Positions 17,771 through 25,275 of a stretch of 61,867 nucleotides of DNA are shown one piece after another; within the stretch, counting starts at the first letter, position 1; each line of letters begins with the position of its first letter. The notes under the pieces are model-generated. The model was given only the letters and a program-made list of their open reading frames with translations. It had not been told where the DNA came from and did not search any database. This stretch comes from Chryseobacterium gleum (GTDB lineage: Bacteria; Bacteroidota; Bacteroidia; Flavobacteriales_D; Sanyastnellaceae): positions 1-61,867 of the forward strand of contig CAMBPD010000001.1 of assembly GCA_945869405.1 (NCBI GenBank), read 5' to 3'. The position numbers were made by a program, and so were the translations under genes.

Positions 17771-17796
17771 AAAAAAAAGGCCCATTGGGCCTTTTT
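17771..17796 (-). terminator. rho-independent terminator downstream of the Lys-rich protein gene
   Basis: On the minus strand the sequence reads aaggcccaatgggcctt (7-bp GC-containing stem, 3-nt loop) followed by 8 T. It starts 2 nt after the stop codon. Confidence 0.65.
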
Positions 17797-17798
17797 CA

Positions 17799-18695
17799 TT
17801 ATTTCAAAAACTCCACTTTCGGCTTAGTTCCATCGAACCAAGTAGGTAAACCCCAAAGTCCTGAGCGCATTTTATTGCCTTTGGCATCTTGAGTGACTAC
17901 TAACAATTCTTTTCTTGCCTTCATGTTTGATAGTATTACCGAAATATACTTTCCAAGGTCAGAGCGTGACTTTCCAGGGTATAAGCTTGCTAGCTTATCG
18001 GTAATCACCGAGTTAGTTGTAAAACGAGCGCTACTGCCTACAATCCCCTGAATTTTCTCGGCTAAATCCGGTATACGATTACGTTTGCCTGGCTTACTTG
18101 GCTTGCTGGCCGTTGGTTTTTTAACCGGCTTCTTTGCCTTTGCCAATGGTTTTACAATTCCTTTTTTCGATGCCGATGGCTTAGATGGCTTGACTGCCTT
18201 AGCACTCTTCTTCTTCTGCGCCAAAGACTTGGATAATACCGGCATTGATACCAAAACCACATTTTCATTCACAGCAGATTCCACTGGTTTTACAATTCCT
18301 TTTTTCGCTGCCAATGGCTTAGATGGCTTAACCGCCTTGGCACTCTTCTTCTGCGCTTTAGGCTTCGATAAAACTGACTTTGATGCCACAACAACATTTT
18401 CATTCCGAGCAGACTCAACCGGGGTATTGTTCGATACTGGCAAAGCACTCGCCTTCTTAGGCCCTGTCTTTTTCGATCCTGGCTTATTCTTAGCACCAGG
18501 TGGACGACCTCGCTTGCCCGTTTTCACTTTTACCTCCGTGCCCAACATTTGTTGCAGCGTTGGGATCTTTGCCTTCCTTCCTCTGCTTGCACCAACACCT
18601 TGAAGTATTCGGTATGCCTCAGATAGAACATTATATTCTTTTTGAATAGACTCCATTCGATTGCGAATTTGAGCCAAGTATATTGCTTTCGCCAT
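17799..18695 (-). CDS. Lys-rich histone H1-like DNA-binding protein with an AT-hook motif and a C-terminal winged-helix-like domain
   Basis: The AT-hook core is KTGKRGRPPGAKNKPGSKKTGPKK. A tandem 45/46-aa K/A/P/S-rich repeat is present. The globular C-terminus is ..FTTNSVITDKLASLYPGKSRSDLGKYISVILSNMKARKELLVV..SGLWGLPTWF. The start is at MAKAIYLAQIRN (18695). Confidence 0.6.
   Translation of the reverse strand: MAKAIYLAQIRNRMESIQKEYNVLSEAYRILQGVGASRGRKAKIPTLQQMLGTEVKVKTGKRGRPPGAKNKPGSKKTGPKKASALPVSNNTPVESARNENVVVASKSVLSKPKAQKKSAKAVKPSKPLAAKKGIVKPVESAVNENVVLVSMPVLSKSLAQKKKSAKAVKPSKPSASKKGIVKPLAKAKKPVKKPTASKPSKPGKRNRIPDLAEKIQGIVGSSARFTTNSVITDKLASLYPGKSRSDLGKYISVILSNMKARKELLVVTQDAKGNKMRSGLWGLPTWFDGTKPKVEFLK
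18148..18420 (-). repeat. in-frame tandem duplication (138 bp plus 135 bp) inside the Lys-rich protein gene
   Basis: Copies at 18148-18285 and 18286-18420 both begin ggttttacaattccttttttcg and are roughly 80 percent identical by eye. One copy carries an extra ctt (one extra Lys). They encode PVESA(R/V)NENVV..SKS..AQKK(K)SAKAVKPSKP..KKGIVK. Confidence 0.85.
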
Positions 18696-18919
18696 GAGTA
18701 TTAAATTATGAGGCAAATGTAGCAAAGACCGCATTTAACAGGTAAAAAAAATGACACTAATTGTCATATTCCTATTTAATCGCATCTAATAAGATAAACA
18801 CCAAGACCTGGTTTAAAGAATTTTATAATCATTTGATTCCACAACGACTAGTGAAATTCAAACCCATCCGAGCATTGCAAAGCCTCAAAATTCGCTAATT
18901 TCACAGCCAAATTTTTTGT

Positions 18920-20935
18920 ATGCCCGCACTTCAAAAACCCTCTATTAAGTTCAACAAAAATCACGGTCTTAGCAACGATGAACTTCTACGTTTCTATCAA
19001 GCGATTCTTCTTCCACGACTCATAGAGGAGAAAATGCTCAGTCAACTCAGATTGGGTAAAATATCAAAGTGGTTCAGCAGTTTCGGACAAGAGGCTATTT
19101 CAGTGGGTGTTGCGTTGGCCATGGACAAAGAAGAATATATCTTACCCATGCACAGGAACCTAGGCATTTTTACCGGGCGCGATTTACCCCTTGACCAGTT
19201 GTTTATGCAGTTTCAAGGCAAAGAGCGAGGGTTCACAAAAGGACGAGACCGTTCGTTTCATTTTGGAACTCAAAAGCACAAAGTTGTGGGCATGATATCA
19301 CACCTCGGTCCGCAACTTGGCATTGCAGACGGCATCGCTCTGGCCAACAAACTAGGCAAGGAAAAGAAGGCAACGATTGTTTTTTGTGGAGATGGTGGAG
19401 CAAGTGAGGGCGACTTCCATGAAGCACTAAATGTTGCTGCAGTATGGGATCTTCCTGTGATTATTGCAATAGAAAACAATGCGTGGGGTTTGTCTACGCC
19501 AAGTAAAGAACAGTTTCGATGCAAACAATTCATCGACAAGGCCATTGGCTACGGCATGCCCTCAGAAGATGCAATACAGGTCGACGGAAATAATATACTG
19601 GAAGTTTACAATGCAGTGAAAACCGCGGCAGAAAGCATTCGCGAACGTCCGCGACCTATCCTAATGGAATTCATGACTTTCCGTCTGCGTGGCCACGAAG
19701 AAGCCAGTGGCACGAAGTATTATCCAGACGGACTAATACAAGATTGGGAGAAAAAAGACCCTGTAGATAATTTCGAAGCCTGGTTGTATGAAAAGGGTAT
19801 AATCAATGAAGAGTCTGAAGGACGTATTCGCTCTGCACTCAAGCAACAAATAAGTGACGCGCTCAAAACCGCTTATGCCGAGCCTGATATTACCCCTGCA
19901 ACAGAGCTGGAAGTGAATGATGTCTATGCACATTTTGAGAATGCCGCTATTCATCCAACGAGTCCAGAAAAAACTGAACGTAGATTTATTGATGCCATAG
20001 GTGACGGCCTTCGCCAGAGCATGAATCGTCATGAAAAACTGGTACTGATGGGTCAAGACATTGCTGATTATGGTGGTGTTTTCAAAGTAACTGAGGGTTT
20101 TGTTGCTGAATTCGGCAAAGAGAGAGTGCGCAATACTCCTCTGTGCGAATCTGCCATTGTGGGCACCGGACTCGGGCTCTCCATGCGCGGATGGAAGGCG
20201 ATGGTGGAAATGCAGTTTGCAGACTTCGTGACCTGCGGATTCAATCAAATCATCAACAACCTCGCAAAGCTTCACTATCGCTGGCAGGAAAATGCGGATG
20301 TTGTCGTAAGAATGCCAACCGGCGCAGGTATGGCTGCCGGCCCCTTTCACAGCCAAAGCAATGAGGCTTGGTTTGCGCACACCCCCGGCCTCAAAGTAGT
20401 TTATCCCGCCTTTCCATATGACGCAAAAGGTCTTCTCTGCCAAGCGTTTGAAGATCCTAATCCTGTTATTTTCTTTGAGCACAAAGGATTGTATAGAAAT
20501 ATTTCTGGCGATGTCCCCAATGACTTTTACACCATTCCATTCGGCAAAGCGCAATTAATTAAACAGGGCGAAAAAATCACCATTGTAACCTACGGTTTAG
20601 GGGTGCATTGGGCACTTGATTATTTAAAGCAATACCCGGGTTTAAGCGCCGATTTAATTGATTTGAGAACCCTGCTTCCACTCGATATGGAAACTATTTA
20701 CGCGTCGGTGAAAAAAACAGGGCGCGTTATAGTGTTGCATGAAGACTCGCTCACCGGGGGAATCGGCGGAGAAATCGCGGCTCGAATTGGAGAGCATTGT
20801 TTCGAGCACCTCGATGCCCCAGTTGTTCGGTGTGCAAGTTTAGATACACCCATACCGTTTAATGCTGAGCTCGAGAAAAACTTCTTGGCGAATAAATACC
20901 TCGAAAATGCCATCGACAAACTGCTTCGATATTAA
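18920..20935 (+). CDS. fused 2-oxoacid (branched-chain type) dehydrogenase E1 component, alpha and beta subunits in one polypeptide
   Basis: The N-terminal half carries the TPP-binding E1-alpha motif (FCGDGGASEGDFHEALNVAAVWDLPVI..ENNAWG). The C-terminal half is E1-beta-like (MGQDIADYGGVFKVTEGF..NTPLCESAIVG..). This fusion is common in Bacteroidota. Confidence 0.85.
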   Translation: MPALQKPSIKFNKNHGLSNDELLRFYQAILLPRLIEEKMLSQLRLGKISKWFSSFGQEAISVGVALAMDKEEYILPMHRNLGIFTGRDLPLDQLFMQFQGKERGFTKGRDRSFHFGTQKHKVVGMISHLGPQLGIADGIALANKLGKEKKATIVFCGDGGASEGDFHEALNVAAVWDLPVIIAIENNAWGLSTPSKEQFRCKQFIDKAIGYGMPSEDAIQVDGNNILEVYNAVKTAAESIRERPRPILMEFMTFRLRGHEEASGTKYYPDGLIQDWEKKDPVDNFEAWLYEKGIINEESEGRIRSALKQQISDALKTAYAEPDITPATELEVNDVYAHFENAAIHPTSPEKTERRFIDAIGDGLRQSMNRHEKLVLMGQDIADYGGVFKVTEGFVAEFGKERVRNTPLCESAIVGTGLGLSMRGWKAMVEMQFADFVTCGFNQIINNLAKLHYRWQENADVVVRMPTGAGMAAGPFHSQSNEAWFAHTPGLKVVYPAFPYDAKGLLCQAFEDPNPVIFFEHKGLYRNISGDVPNDFYTIPFGKAQLIKQGEKITIVTYGLGVHWALDYLKQYPGLSADLIDLRTLLPLDMETIYASVKKTGRVIVLHEDSLTGGIGGEIAARIGEHCFEHLDAPVVRCASLDTPIPFNAELEKNFLANKYLENAIDKLLRY

Positions 20936-24055: not shown

Positions 24056-24297
24056 TGTAGGTCGCTATAATAAGACACAAGATCCAATGAAATTCGAGTC
24101 ATAGTGACCCGTGAAGCGCGCAAATCACATCCGAGTTCAGATGCTCTCGGCAACTGCCTACAATTGGGTATTTGACTATATAACTCCATAACTAGATTCT
24201 GGTCGCTTCGAAAGTACAGTAAATGCAATCATCATAAATCACCACACCACTGTTAATGCGAAAACCTCTTATTTTTACGGCCTATTCAAAATTAATC

Positions 24298-25275
24298 ATG
24301 AGAGAAATTCAATTCCGTGAGGCTATATGCGAGGCGATGTCCGAAGAAATGCGCCGCGATGAGTCAGTGTTTTTACTTGGGGAAGAGGTTGCTGAATATA
24401 ACGGAGCCTACAAGGCTTCAAAGGGCATGCTCGATGAATTCGGAGCGAAGCGAGTGATAGACACCCCCATTGCCGAGCTAGGTTTTTCTGGTATTGCCGT
24501 TGGCGCCGCCATGAATGGTCTGCGACCCATTGTTGAGTTTATGACTTGGAATTTCGCCATACTTGCTGCTGATCAAATCATAAATTCTGCTGCAAAAATG
24601 CTGCAAATGAGTGGTGGACAGTATAACGTCCCGATTGTATTCCGAGGTCCAAACGGAACAGCTGGTCAATTGGCAGCTACACACTCGCAAAGTTTCGAGT
24701 CGATGTATGCGCACATCCCTGGATTAAAAGTTATTACTCCATCAAATCCATATGACGCGAAAGGTCTTTTAAAGGCAGCTATTCGCGACAATGACCCAGT
24801 AGTGTTTTTTGAAAGTGAGAAGATGTATGGCGATAAAGGGCTTGTGCCAGATGGTGAGTATATCATTCCAATCGGATTGGCCGACATCAAGAGAGAAGGA
24901 ACTGATGTTACCTTGGTCTCCTTTGGGAAAATAATGAAGACTGCTCTGGCGGCGGCAGCTGAGCTCGAAAAAGAAGGCATCAGCATGGAAGTAATCGATT
25001 TACGTACCATCCGTCCGTTGGATATTGACACCATCGTTCAATCCGTAAAAAAGACCAACCGCCTTATCATCCTAGAAGAGTCTTGGCCCGTAGCAAGCAT
25101 TTCGACAGAGATTGCATACCGTGTGCAACGTCATGCGTTCGATTATCTCGACGCACCTATTCGTCGCCTTACTCAAACAGATACTCCACTCCCCTTCGCA
25201 ACAACACTTATAGATGCCGCACTACCTCAAATAGCTGACGTAGTTCGCACTGCGAAAGAAGTTTTGTACAAATAG
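24298..25275 (+). CDS. pdhB: pyruvate dehydrogenase E1 component beta subunit
   Basis: MREIQFREAICEAMSEEMRRDESVFLLGEEVAEYNGAYKASKGMLDEFG..RVIDTPIAELGF matches E1-beta. The start is at ATG 24298. No E1-alpha gene is adjacent. Confidence 0.85.
   Translation: MREIQFREAICEAMSEEMRRDESVFLLGEEVAEYNGAYKASKGMLDEFGAKRVIDTPIAELGFSGIAVGAAMNGLRPIVEFMTWNFAILAADQIINSAAKMLQMSGGQYNVPIVFRGPNGTAGQLAATHSQSFESMYAHIPGLKVITPSNPYDAKGLLKAAIRDNDPVVFFESEKMYGDKGLVPDGEYIIPIGLADIKREGTDVTLVSFGKIMKTALAAAAELEKEGISMEVIDLRTIRPLDIDTIVQSVKKTNRLIILEESWPVASISTEIAYRVQRHAFDYLDAPIRRLTQTDTPLPFATTLIDAALPQIADVVRTAKEVLYK

Follow-up and report, generated by a model that had tools for sequence, protein, structure and literature searches.

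A conserved three-module protein family of Bacteroidota as a candidate nucleoid-associated protein for AT-rich DNA

Does the lysine-rich reading frame at 17799-18695 of the window, by which we mean the whole stretch of 61,867 nucleotides analysed here, encode a real protein, and what might such a protein do? The preliminary description of this DNA had read the minus strand as a 298-aa product in three parts: a short helical N-terminus, a long K/A/P/S-rich middle region with an AT-hook signature and a tandem repeat, and a globular C-terminus thought to resemble a winged helix of the HARE-HTH kind. The features on which the answer depends are the following.

17799-18695, minus strand: coding sequence of 298 aa (protein P0001), with its stop codon within the span
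18591-18692, minus strand: N-terminal helix, residues 2-35 (AF2 helix H2-35, pLDDT 74-89), with a heptad pattern
18573-18584, minus strand: RGRK, residues 38-41, within the conserved RGRKAKIPTL (from the alignment)
18483-18518, minus strand: AT-hook sequence GKRGRPPGAKNK, residues 60-71, an R-G-R-P core with basic flanks (from the alignment)
18087-18482, minus strand: linker rich in K/A/P/S/V and predicted to be disordered, residues 72-203 (pLDDT 46-56)
18147-18422, minus strand: 46-aa unit duplicated in tandem and in frame, residues 92-137 and 137-183 (37/46 identical)
17802-18086, minus strand: basic tail KR-R-IPN (residues 204-210) and predicted winged helix with WGLxxW (pLDDT ~91)
17771-17796, minus strand: hairpin resembling an intrinsic terminator, with U8 behind it, beginning 3 nt past the stop codon
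18714-18721, minus strand: TACATTTG, a -7-like promoter box that fits TAnnTTTG, 18 nt from the ATG
18751-18767, no strand assigned: perfect 17-bp palindrome ATGACA-N5-TGTCAT, 29 nt ahead of the -7-like box

The locus at 17799-18695 on the minus strand is a real, conserved gene. Homologues of P0001 number 95 at E <= 1e-3, and the sense frame is open throughout in 12 of 12 related loci. An alternative ATG at 18734 would give a 311-aa product; the start at 18695 is favoured because the homologues begin there, with a matching MAK/MAN in all 32 aligned sequences (some with unconserved extensions before it), and because the TAnnTTTG-type box lies between the two ATGs. TAnnTTTG is the consensus of the Bacteroidota -7 promoter box, and among 12 aligned loci the box is kept in the window and in six close loci (L002-L006 and L010). 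A sigma-70 promoter scan was uninformative, with 3 sites found and 3.0 expected. Downstream, the terminator-like hairpin has a folding energy of -17 kcal/mol (z -3.94), and none of 200 shuffled sequences folded equally well. The strong terminator of its own that the preliminary description had assigned to the gene is thus in place, as is the upstream region of 224 bp, which has exactly that length and ends at a divergent gene at 18920.

Expression of the gene has a weak hint in a 185-nt metatranscriptome contig that matches 18056-18239 with 0 mismatches, a match from which neither strand nor level can be read and which DNA carry-over could also explain. The contig came from one of three RNA runs; the other two yielded no contig matching the stretch. 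A separate 42-nt metatranscriptome piece with 4 mismatches falls in the neighbouring gene and probably derives from another organism.

The family was seen in Bacteroidota only, with 53 representatives among 1.84 billion proteins. In a sample of 301 genomes from the order, the gene occurs in 11, all belonging to one family of lake-dwelling Flavobacteriales, and each of the 11 carries one copy. Its spread is uneven (10 of the 74 genomes from its own family; 8 of 401 in a phylum sample), and so it is no core nucleoid protein for Bacteroidota as a whole. The three-module plan recurs in distant members at 20-30% identity and in the AF2 model of one such member, P0117. The preliminary description called the architecture uncharacterised, and this holds for the sources searched: Pfam and NCBIfam scans of P0001 matched no family model, the family proteins are named just 'hypothetical' in their source records, and the open-access literature yielded no published description of the family.

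The first module is a conserved heptad coiled coil that likely serves in dimerisation or oligomerisation. Across 37 sequences, 89% of the a/d positions of the N-terminal helix are strongly hydrophobic vs 17% of the positions elsewhere, and the AF2 model of P0117 contains a helix at H3-37 (pLDDT 93-96). A PDB profile search with alignment A3 matched designed coiled coils alone, weakly and on the N-helix. An earlier PDB sequence profile, from alignment A1, gave a single match, to ATP synthase b at E 0.11, that we judged to be chance.

Two short motifs follow the helix. RGRK has an AT-hook-like R-G-R core without the proline, while KRGRPPGAKNK (residues 61-71) has the R-G-R-P core and basic flanks of an AT-hook and is predicted from its sequence to bind the DNA minor groove. 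The core is conserved in the family: of 32 sequences, 90% or more have R64 and P65, and a GRP motif is found in 108 of 142 family proteins. Matches to the short Pfam AT_hook model (PF02178), the best at E 0.0035, are confined to 3 of 32 members in one set and 4 of 37 in the other.

The linker is the variable part of the protein. Residues 81-204 contain 30 K, 17 A, 14 P, 18 S and 17 V and carry a net charge of +27, in a whole protein of pI 10.75 and net charge +51; the AF2 model leaves residues 36-205 disordered. Linkers of homologues differ in both length and sequence, and their mean identity to P0001 is 15% vs 64-77% in the flanking parts. When two strains were compared, all 4 non-synonymous differences fell in the linker, and the differences in the winged helix were synonymous in 4 of 4 cases. 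The linker was lengthened recently by the 46-aa duplication, which P0003 shares but P0004 and more distant homologues lack. At the nucleotide level it appears in find_repeats as two direct repeat families with 135/138-nt spacing, and it was found without indel in a DNA contig from another study; Tandem Repeats Finder reported no array in the region.

All three parts of the 298-aa product are real. The AT-hook, the K/A/P/S-rich region, the tandem repeat and the winged-helix type of the C-terminus each agree with the preliminary description, which had under-read the N-terminus: the helix stands, and the conserved heptad coiled coil had been missed.

The C-terminal domain is predicted to be a winged helix-turn-helix of the order H-H-H-E-E (AF2 elements H211-222, H228-238, H244-260, E265-269 and E275-282), and the corresponding domain of P0117 is modelled with pLDDT 90-96. 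Together with the KR-R-IPN tail, the domain has a net charge of +9 and a pI of 10.2. All leading fold matches are winged helices, and almost all of these bind nucleic acid. For two family models the best match was the globular domain of histone H5, 1hst_A (Z 9.6, rmsd 2.4, 72/74 residues; for the second model Z 10.1, rmsd 2.0, 72/74), and the H1.8 chain 7kbf_K scored Z 9.1 and 10.0. Further matches after GH5 include H1, Fur/PerR, forkhead and Z-alpha, with PadR and MarR also present. With 48-54 chains reaching Z >= 8 and lying within about 1-2 Z units, these scores are ties, and the fold matches, which compare predicted models, point to no one function. None of the best 50 rows of the fold searches was recognisable as Rok, the delta subunit or ASXL, which does not mean that these are absent.

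Sequence profiles give a narrower answer. HARE-HTH (PF05066) is found in the RNA-polymerase delta subunit, in ASXL and in restriction-endonuclease fusions. We compared the family C-terminus by hhalign with profiles of HARE-HTH, PadR, Fur and BlaI; an initial HARE-HTH profile of three sequences gave a probability of 0.3% and was replaced by one of 27 independent Bacteroidota sequences, which gave 53% (P 1.3e-4) over 32 columns covering H1-H2 only. Against the eight HARE-HTH repeats of P0114 the probability was 89% over 65 columns, a comparison that is biased because P0114 was recruited by the profile of this very family, and against a merged HARE-HTH profile it was 89.5% over 71 columns. In forty column-shuffled controls each for the independent profile and the P0114 repeats, the maximum score was 12.4-14.6, compared with real scores of 27-36. 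PadR reached 2.9%, and Fur and BlaI 0.6% each. The Pfam model PF05066 (cut-off 25.9 bits) gave no match at E <= 10 among the best 25 of 39 families for 32 members or among the best 25 of 68 families for 37 members, and no match anywhere in the genome at E <= 1. Thus HARE-HTH is the best sequence-level link found, moderately supported by profile comparison and below the level of family membership. The HARE-HTH guess of the preliminary description keeps moderate support from the profile-profile comparison and fails as a match to the Pfam model.

The same description had called the protein H1-like. Only its composition and generic fold speak for this; the Linker_histone model PF00538 matched nothing in the genome at E <= 10. 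The WH_Rok model PF23159, searched at E <= 1, found nothing there either, and an ESM-Atlas lead at 0.80 is the sole link to Rok. Beyond AT_hook in 3-4 members, Pfam scans of the 32 and 37 members returned noise (a Bap31 coiled coil and single-member winged-helix families). P0118, a 632-aa protein recruited at E 8.5e-8, was rejected as a relative, since a beta-propeller-like repeat in it resembles the wing hairpin. This false positive illustrates that summed repeat scores can mislead, and the HMMER match of P0114, at 2-9 bits per repeat, was therefore set aside as evidence.

With the coiled coil recognised, the architecture becomes that of a pairing helix, a basic AT-hook linker and a winged helix, as in proteins of the H-NS type and especially Rok. 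We lean, with modest confidence, towards the reading that P0001 is a dimeric or oligomeric nucleoid-associated protein, architectural in nature, that binds AT-rich DNA. The 34-residue amphipathic N-helix would pair with other copies to form a coiled-coil dimer or a higher oligomer. Each chain would then extend as a long, flexible, strongly cationic arm whose AT-hooks may act as established AT-hooks do, and at the end of the arm the basic, divergent HARE-HTH-like winged helix, behind its KR-R tail, would make a second, folded contact with DNA. A particle that has at least two of these arms could bridge or bend DNA or coat it, acting globally on nucleoid structure and transcription by analogy with H-NS, Lsr2, MvaT and Rok, of which Rok is closest in design. 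The variable, duplication-prone linker would tune reach and charge and leave specificity alone.

The conserved gene, strain changes that leave the winged-helix sequence unaltered, modules that are all basic and an AT-hook core that is kept speak for such a nucleoid protein. So do the heptad pattern, the predicted winged-helix fold with its mostly nucleic-acid-binding matches, the recurrence of the three-module plan in distant members, the single copy per genome and the lack of a conserved functional neighbour outside the home family. On the other side, the single 34-residue helix may give a dimer only, which speaks against a nucleoid filament. H-NS-like genes often occur on phages and plasmids, yet tblastn of the C-terminal domain against phage and plasmid collections gave no match. 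Nor is DNA binding a known activity of the HARE-HTH domain that the RNA-polymerase delta subunit carries.

A bolder form of this reading, tentative and in our view somewhat unlikely, is that the family is the Bacteroidota counterpart of the H-NS/Lsr2/MvaT/Rok class, a self-associating chromatin protein that coats or bridges AT-rich DNA and was built independently. Its parts may have been a coiled coil, RGRP AT-hooks of the genuine eukaryotic type, a lysine-rich arm like that of H1, and a winged helix akin to HARE-HTH, with the globular domain of linker histones among the solved structures closest to it in fold.

A different role, which we consider unlikely, is that of a sequence-specific transcription factor in which a coiled-coil winged-helix dimer binds a palindromic operator such as ATGACA-N5-TGTCAT and the AT-hooks just add affinity. 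The dimeric winged-helix proteins Fur, PadR and MarR are indeed among the fold matches; profile comparison rejects PadR, Fur and BlaI (0.6-2.9%). The palindrome lies ahead of the gene's own promoter and is possibly an autoregulatory operator. Among 12 aligned loci it is kept in 6, being exact in the window and L002-L005 with one change in L006, but it is not kept in the more distant orthologues L009-L012, L015 and L016. Its core, TGACA-N5-TGTCA, is rare in the genome, but its 2 sites in the 2.64-Mb assembly are no enrichment over the 2 found for the reversed control pattern. Furthermore, it is unusual for specific regulators to carry a net charge as high as +51 and a cationic linker 130 residues long. 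Gene neighbours differ outside the home family, where distant members adjoin an IS1595 transposase, a DUF3800 protein or an HsdR gene and no functional neighbour is conserved, which speaks against a local, operon-specific regulator.

It is also quite improbable, in our estimate, that P0001 is an RNA-polymerase-associated factor whose HARE-HTH-like domain docks on the polymerase while the AT-hook arm tethers it to AT-rich DNA upstream of promoters. Both halves of this idea have parallels, in the docking HARE-HTH domain of Gram-positive delta and in Myxococcus CarD, which joins an RNAP-binding domain to an HMGA-type AT-hook domain. In sequence the domain comes closest to HARE-HTH, and chains from Gram-positive RNA-polymerase complexes match its fold (8x6g_E, Z 8.0 and 9.1; 7f75_L, Z 8.9), but these values tie with dozens of unrelated winged helices. 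The delta subunit has an acidic tail, the opposite of the basic arm, the coiled coil lacks a counterpart in either delta or CarD, and the gene is unlinked to any RNA-polymerase gene.

Less probable again, and by our estimate very improbable, is an RNA-binding or ribosome-associated basic protein that would place its winged helix and lysine-rich arm on structured RNA. Very basic disordered proteins commonly bind RNA, and the fold matches include SelB (1lva, Z 9.2) and the Roquin ROQ domain (Foldseek E 0.06-0.1). Against this, most of the top fold matches are DNA binders, the RGRP AT-hook is known best as a motif for the DNA minor groove, and no translation genes are linked nearby. Finally, the idea that the real gene is the plus-strand ORF at 18085-18603 (open over 172 aa), a possibility that the preliminary description had itself raised, or that the region is non-coding altogether, can practically be dismissed, since that ORF spans the lysine-rich part only, where the antisense of AAG/AAA codons gives no stops, the longest antisense frame ranges from 86 to 225 aa over the 12 loci in which the sense frame stays open, the conserved N- and C-terminal modules fall outside it, the strain differences in the winged helix are all synonymous in the minus frame (differences where the two frames overlap are of the same class in both), and the terminator and promoter box are oriented for the minus strand.

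H-NS-type chromatin proteins are lineage-specific and have been discovered phylum by phylum, and our search of the open-access literature found none for Bacteroidota. The family described here is a small, concrete candidate with clean module boundaries. In it a HARE-HTH-like winged helix appears in a setting new for such domains, combined with a coiled coil and a basic tail, and its canonical RGRP AT-hook is of a type rarely met in bacteria. Additionally, its recently lengthened linker lets one see, as in a natural experiment, how a disordered cationic arm changes in length during evolution. Should the family prove to be the Bacteroidota counterpart of the H-NS class, bacteria would have independently assembled a linker-histone-like winged helix with a K/A/P tail, and the family would offer a first way into the study of nucleoid structuring or xenogeneic silencing in the phylum. 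An ordinary specific regulator would be merely one more uncharacterised family.

How does P0001 compare with known systems? The bacterial lysine-rich H1-like proteins, Chlamydia Hc1/Hc2 and Pseudomonas AlgP, share its very basic lysine/alanine/proline-rich composition. They are essentially low-complexity tails alone, whereas the P0001 family adds two conserved folded modules, and the Pfam HC2 model touches only 1 of 32 members (E 0.054). HMGA and Myxococcus CarD share the R-G-R-P core and its basic flanks, and CarD, in the passages cited, is described as using HMGA-type AT-hooks in a bacterium, joined to an RNA-polymerase-interacting domain (PMC2919716). HMGA lacks a folded domain, and coiled coil and winged helix are missing from both proteins.

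Linker histones H1/H5 resemble P0001 in combining a winged-helix globular domain with a long, disordered, Lys/Ala/Pro-rich tail that binds DNA. The part of the literature cited here describes H1 as having a tripartite plan with a bacterial-like lysine-rich tail (PMC8015243). In H1/H5 the order is short N-tail, globular domain and then lysine-rich tail, whereas P0001 reverses this order and adds a coiled coil; the histones have neither coiled coil nor RGRP hook, and their Z scores tie with those of Fur, PadR and Z-alpha. HARE-HTH domains share with the C-terminal domain a full-domain alignment (65-71 columns, with the P0114 repeats and the merged profile) that includes the aromatic-G-L-x-x-W wing strand, and neither they nor the P0001 domain match PadR, Fur or BlaI. 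The bacterial contexts given in the cited portion of PMC4738411 are endonuclease or methylase fusions. Known bacterial contexts differ from the present one in lacking the coiled coil and AT-hooks.

H-NS, Lsr2 and MvaT each join a domain for oligomerisation through a flexible linker to one that binds DNA, and P0001 appears, in predicted architecture alone, to share this plan, with a disordered linker leading to a basic winged helix at its C-terminus. The fold of every module differs. PMC6936261, in the sections used here, describes H-NS-type filaments as requiring two dimerisation sites, and a Q/RGR motif of the 'AT-hook-like' kind as the means by which H-NS and Lsr2 read the minor groove. P0001 has one helix vs those two sites, and its RGR motifs sit in the linker vs inside the folded DNA-binding domain of H-NS/Lsr2/MvaT.

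The closest parallel is Rok, an H-NS-like xenogeneic silencer and DNA bridger of Bacillus subtilis. Its functions are proven, whereas those of P0001 are proposed, and the sole link between them is the ESM-Atlas lead; according to the portions of PMC6212790 drawn on here, Rok has no canonical RGRP AT-hook, and it differs further in having no 130-residue lysine-rich linker. Both proteins are small and lineage-restricted. As described in the parts of the literature cited, Rok joins an N-terminal helical oligomerisation module and a linker to a C-terminal monomeric winged helix behind a short arginine-rich tail (PMC6212790), a basic tail that sits in the minor groove (PMC6936261, PMC6212790), and it is this arrangement that the predicted modules of P0001 resemble most.

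Translation of the minus-strand reading frame at 17799-18695 yields the 298-residue product (P0001) that the preliminary description had claimed. In the AlphaFold2 model of P0001, built from a 32-sequence alignment, residues 2-35 form a helix with pLDDT 74-89. Similarly, the model of P0117, a distant family member about 30% identical with the same three-part plan, has a helix at residues 3-37 (pLDDT 93-96). In 37 diverse family members, strongly hydrophobic residues fill 89% of cells at the heptad a/d positions (7, 10, 14, 17, 21, 24, 28 and 31), versus 17% elsewhere, and this contrast is seen in just one of seven registers. The only matches to this part in a PDB profile search, all weak, were designed coiled coils. 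Based on the heptad pattern and these matches, we conclude that the N-terminal helix is a conserved coiled-coil module; a short helical N-terminus had been recognized before, while its coiled-coil nature had been missed.

The helix is followed by RGRKAKIP, which contains an R-G-R core, and then by the RGRP AT-hook, where the motif KRGRPPGAKNK is present as proposed (residues 61-71). The number of GRP motifs per family member ranges from zero to five, with at least one in 108 of 142. K, A, P and S abound in the middle region, as had been noted, and so does V, and the net charge over residues 81-204 is +27; the entire protein has a pI of 10.75 and a net charge of +51. From residue 36 to about 205 the model shows no structure (pLDDT ~50), and the linker is disordered in the P0117 model as well. 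The expected tandem repeat consists of in-frame 46-residue units at 92-137 and 137-183 with 37 of 46 positions identical, a duplication that Tandem Repeats Finder did not detect. Compared with P0001, the 31 other sequences average 64% identity over residues 1-36, 61% over 37-80, 15% over 81-203 and 77% over 204-298. The linker is strongly cationic, free to vary in sequence and altered in length by duplication.

Residues 211-290 are modeled as a compact H-H-H-E-E domain with pLDDT ~91 (90-96 in P0117). The domain has a pI of 10.2 and is directly preceded by a conserved basic tail, KR-R-IPN. By fold, the models indicate a winged helix. The best Foldseek matches to the P0001 model were all winged helices (Hop2, Fur, PadR, RPC39, DsrD, FOXO1 and MarR) and those to the P0117 model were forkhead and Fur, none reaching E 1e-3 in either case. 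In a fold search independent of Foldseek, covering 48,161 representative chains, the histone H5 globular domain (1hst_A) was the top match for both P0001 (Z 9.6, rmsd 2.4, 72 of 74 residues) and P0117 (Z 10.1, rmsd 2.0, 72 of 74 residues), with histone H1.8 second for P0117 (Z 10.0); these top rows are tied, since 48 and 54 chains reach Z >= 8 for the two models.

Curated models did not place the domain: across the genome, HARE-HTH and WH_Rok gave no match at E <= 1 and Linker_histone none at E <= 10, and no family was consistent among the 32 and 37 members scanned. Two HARE-HTH clusters headed the ranking of a protein-language-model atlas (0.83), in which Rok was twelfth (0.80), both scores being below the meaningful level. 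An independent HARE-HTH profile, built from 27 domains of Bacteroidota genomes, aligned helices 1-2 with the family C-terminal profile at 53% probability (P 1.3e-4). The profile search had also drawn in P0114, a 984-residue protein with an unusual all-HARE-HTH array of eight tandem 84-residue repeats, each ending in WGLA[ST]WDAARLADF. These repeats are HARE-HTH by Pfam (E 1.7e-14) and match the independent profile at 94% hhalign probability. They matched the family at 89% over 65 columns, the entire domain including the WGLxxW wing strand, a value biased by the discovery of P0114 through the family's own profile; a merged HARE-HTH profile gave 89.5% over 71 columns. Column-shuffled controls, 40 each for the independent profile and the P0114 repeats, scored at most 12.4-14.6, against 27-36 for the real comparisons. 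PadR, Fur and BlaI profiles of the same construction matched the family at 2.9%, 0.6% and 0.6%; they matched each other at 46-86% and HARE-HTH at 0.5-3.2%. In these comparisons, which covered HARE-HTH, PadR, Fur and BlaI profiles, the domain appears closer to HARE-HTH than to the classical MarR/PadR/Fur cluster. The suggestion of a HARE-HTH-like C-terminus thus gains from profile-profile probabilities of 53-89.5%, but the curated HARE-HTH model is unmatched, and we call the domain probably "HARE-HTH-like, divergent", not a HARE-HTH member.

A second protein drawn by the same search, P0118 (632 residues, DUF5122, beta-propeller-like repeats), was rejected as a family member. It scored E 8.5e-8 against the winged-helix profile solely through a repeated hairpin that resembles the wing, illustrating that summed repeat scores can mislead.

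Together, the results describe an N-terminal helix of coiled-coil type and RGR and RGRP motifs, all of them conserved, a cationic linker predicted to be disordered and a conserved basic domain predicted to be a winged helix. Our best reading, held with moderate confidence, is a chain-pairing multivalent protein: the N-terminal helix would pair chains, the winged helix and the KR-R tail preceding it would provide a second contact, and the resulting particle could coat, bend or bridge DNA.

A specific, perhaps autoregulatory, transcription factor is an unlikely alternative that draws on a palindrome upstream of the gene. Starting at an upstream in-frame ATG (18734) would lengthen the product by 13 residues, but in all 32 aligned members the conserved MAK/MAN start corresponds to 18695 and any extra N-terminal residues are unconserved. 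The upstream region has the 224-bp length originally given and contains two features:

18714-18721, minus strand: -7-like box TACATTTG, between the two ATGs
18751-18767: perfect 17-bp palindrome ATGACA-N5-TGTCAT, 29 nt upstream of the -7-like box

The box, kept in the window and six close loci of twelve aligned, fits TAnnTTTG, the Bacteroidota -7 promoter consensus. The palindrome is kept in the window and L002-L006, related loci of which L006 has one change; TGACA-N5-TGTCA occurs at just two sites in the 2.64-Mb assembly, the second on contig C97 (8698-8712). A DNA contig from another study covers the entire 3-kb stretch, differing by 31 substitutions and lacking any indel. Four of these strain differences (18710, 18712, 18730 and 18731) fall within the 39 nt separating the candidate start codons, in agreement with 18696-18734 being a non-coding leader or promoter. 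The strong terminator ascribed to the gene was recovered as a hairpin with U8 at 17771-17796 (z -3.94; none of 200 shuffles folds as well).

A factor that tethers RNA polymerase, after the model of delta or CarD, is quite improbable, and an RNA-binding protein very unlikely. That the strand is wrong or no gene exists is scarcely credible. In a word-indexed protein search, 95 homologues reached E <= 1e-3; they are 185-311 residues long and unnamed or "hypothetical" save for three evidently automatic names. The sense frame is open throughout in 12 of 12 related loci; the longest antisense frame is variable (86-225 residues), as would be expected opposite AAG/AAA-rich sequence. The plus-strand frame at 18085-18603, once raised as the possible real gene, spans the lysine-rich part alone and leaves the two best-conserved modules outside. 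Eleven of the 31 substitutions lie within the gene: the four in the winged-helix part are all synonymous and all four non-synonymous ones are in the linker, although where the frames overlap this test does not discriminate, since the classes are identical in both. One exact 185-nt contig over 18056-18239, from one of three metatranscriptomes, hints weakly at expression.

When 1.84 billion representative proteins were scanned in full by HMMER with the C-terminal profile, 53 reached E <= 1e-3, 18 of these at E <= 1e-10. Excluding P0114 and P0118, these are 81-266 residues long with the domain C-terminal; nearly all of 34 inspected have the N-terminal helix, often with hooks in between. In the order sample the gene occurs, always in single copy, in 11 of 301 genomes, all of the window's family (10 of 74 besides the window's own; five genera), and in none of 226 genomes of 15 other families. 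A phylum-wide sample with a broader profile gave 8 of 401, and phage and plasmid collections held no homologue. The sequencing runs in which the stretch occurs come from 13 studies of lake and freshwater metagenomes. Every one of the twenty loci from species-representative genomes belongs to a MAG, with records titled Flavobacteriales bacterium (16), Crocinitomicaceae (1), "Chryseobacterium gleum" (2) and "uncultured Comamonadaceae" (1). The "Chryseobacterium gleum" loci L005 and L006 and the "Comamonadaceae" locus L012 share the gene order of the Flavobacteriales MAGs, the former keeping both neighbors and L012 just the downstream block; these labels look unreliable.

Within the home family the gene's position is constant. 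An FAD-dependent protein gene (PF21688) lies downstream in 19 of 20 loci, the twentieth ending at the gene. Upstream, in divergent orientation, 16 of 20 loci have a fused E1 dehydrogenase gene; three of the others are on contigs that end earlier and one has other genes. This is vertical synteny of an entire 12-kb block, so the neighborhood is uninformative on function. In the window the divergent neighbor (18920-20935) encodes a 671-residue fused alpha and beta E1 2-oxoacid dehydrogenase (PF00676, PF02779, PF02780), and 3 kb beyond it 24256-25275 encodes a separate 339-residue paralogue of the E1 beta half (~39% identity, tblastn cross-hits). Distant members from Bacteroidota families other than the home family have other neighbors, an IS1595-type transposase (two genomes), a DUF3800 protein or a type I restriction R subunit (HsdR), at L045 6607-7494, L046 6550-7458 and L048 8919-11777, which hints at variable or mobile regions.

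Searches of the open-access literature (AT-hook, nucleoid, xenogeneic-silencer, HARE-HTH, H-NS and Bacteroidota topics) found no description of such a protein, in keeping with its being called uncharacterised in Bacteroidota. The likeness to linker histones is real in fold and composition, judged against the H1 plan given in PMC8015243, but the Linker_histone model is unmatched, the domain order differs and the coiled coil is extra; the H1-like label holds for composition and generic fold only. The boldest reading, that Bacteroidota built a linker-histone-like or H-NS-like chromatin protein independently, is doubtful. The nearest design is Rok, whose C-terminal domain, according to PMC6212790, is a winged helix after an arginine-rich tail seated in the minor groove. 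Coiled coil, AT-hook, lysine-rich tail and winged helix are parts of known kinds, and the H-NS/Rok-like modular nucleoid protein is a known architecture class. The novelty lies in the family, for which there is neither a curated model nor a name, in the joining of a canonical RGRP hook to both a coiled coil and a HARE-HTH-like winged helix, and in the phylum.
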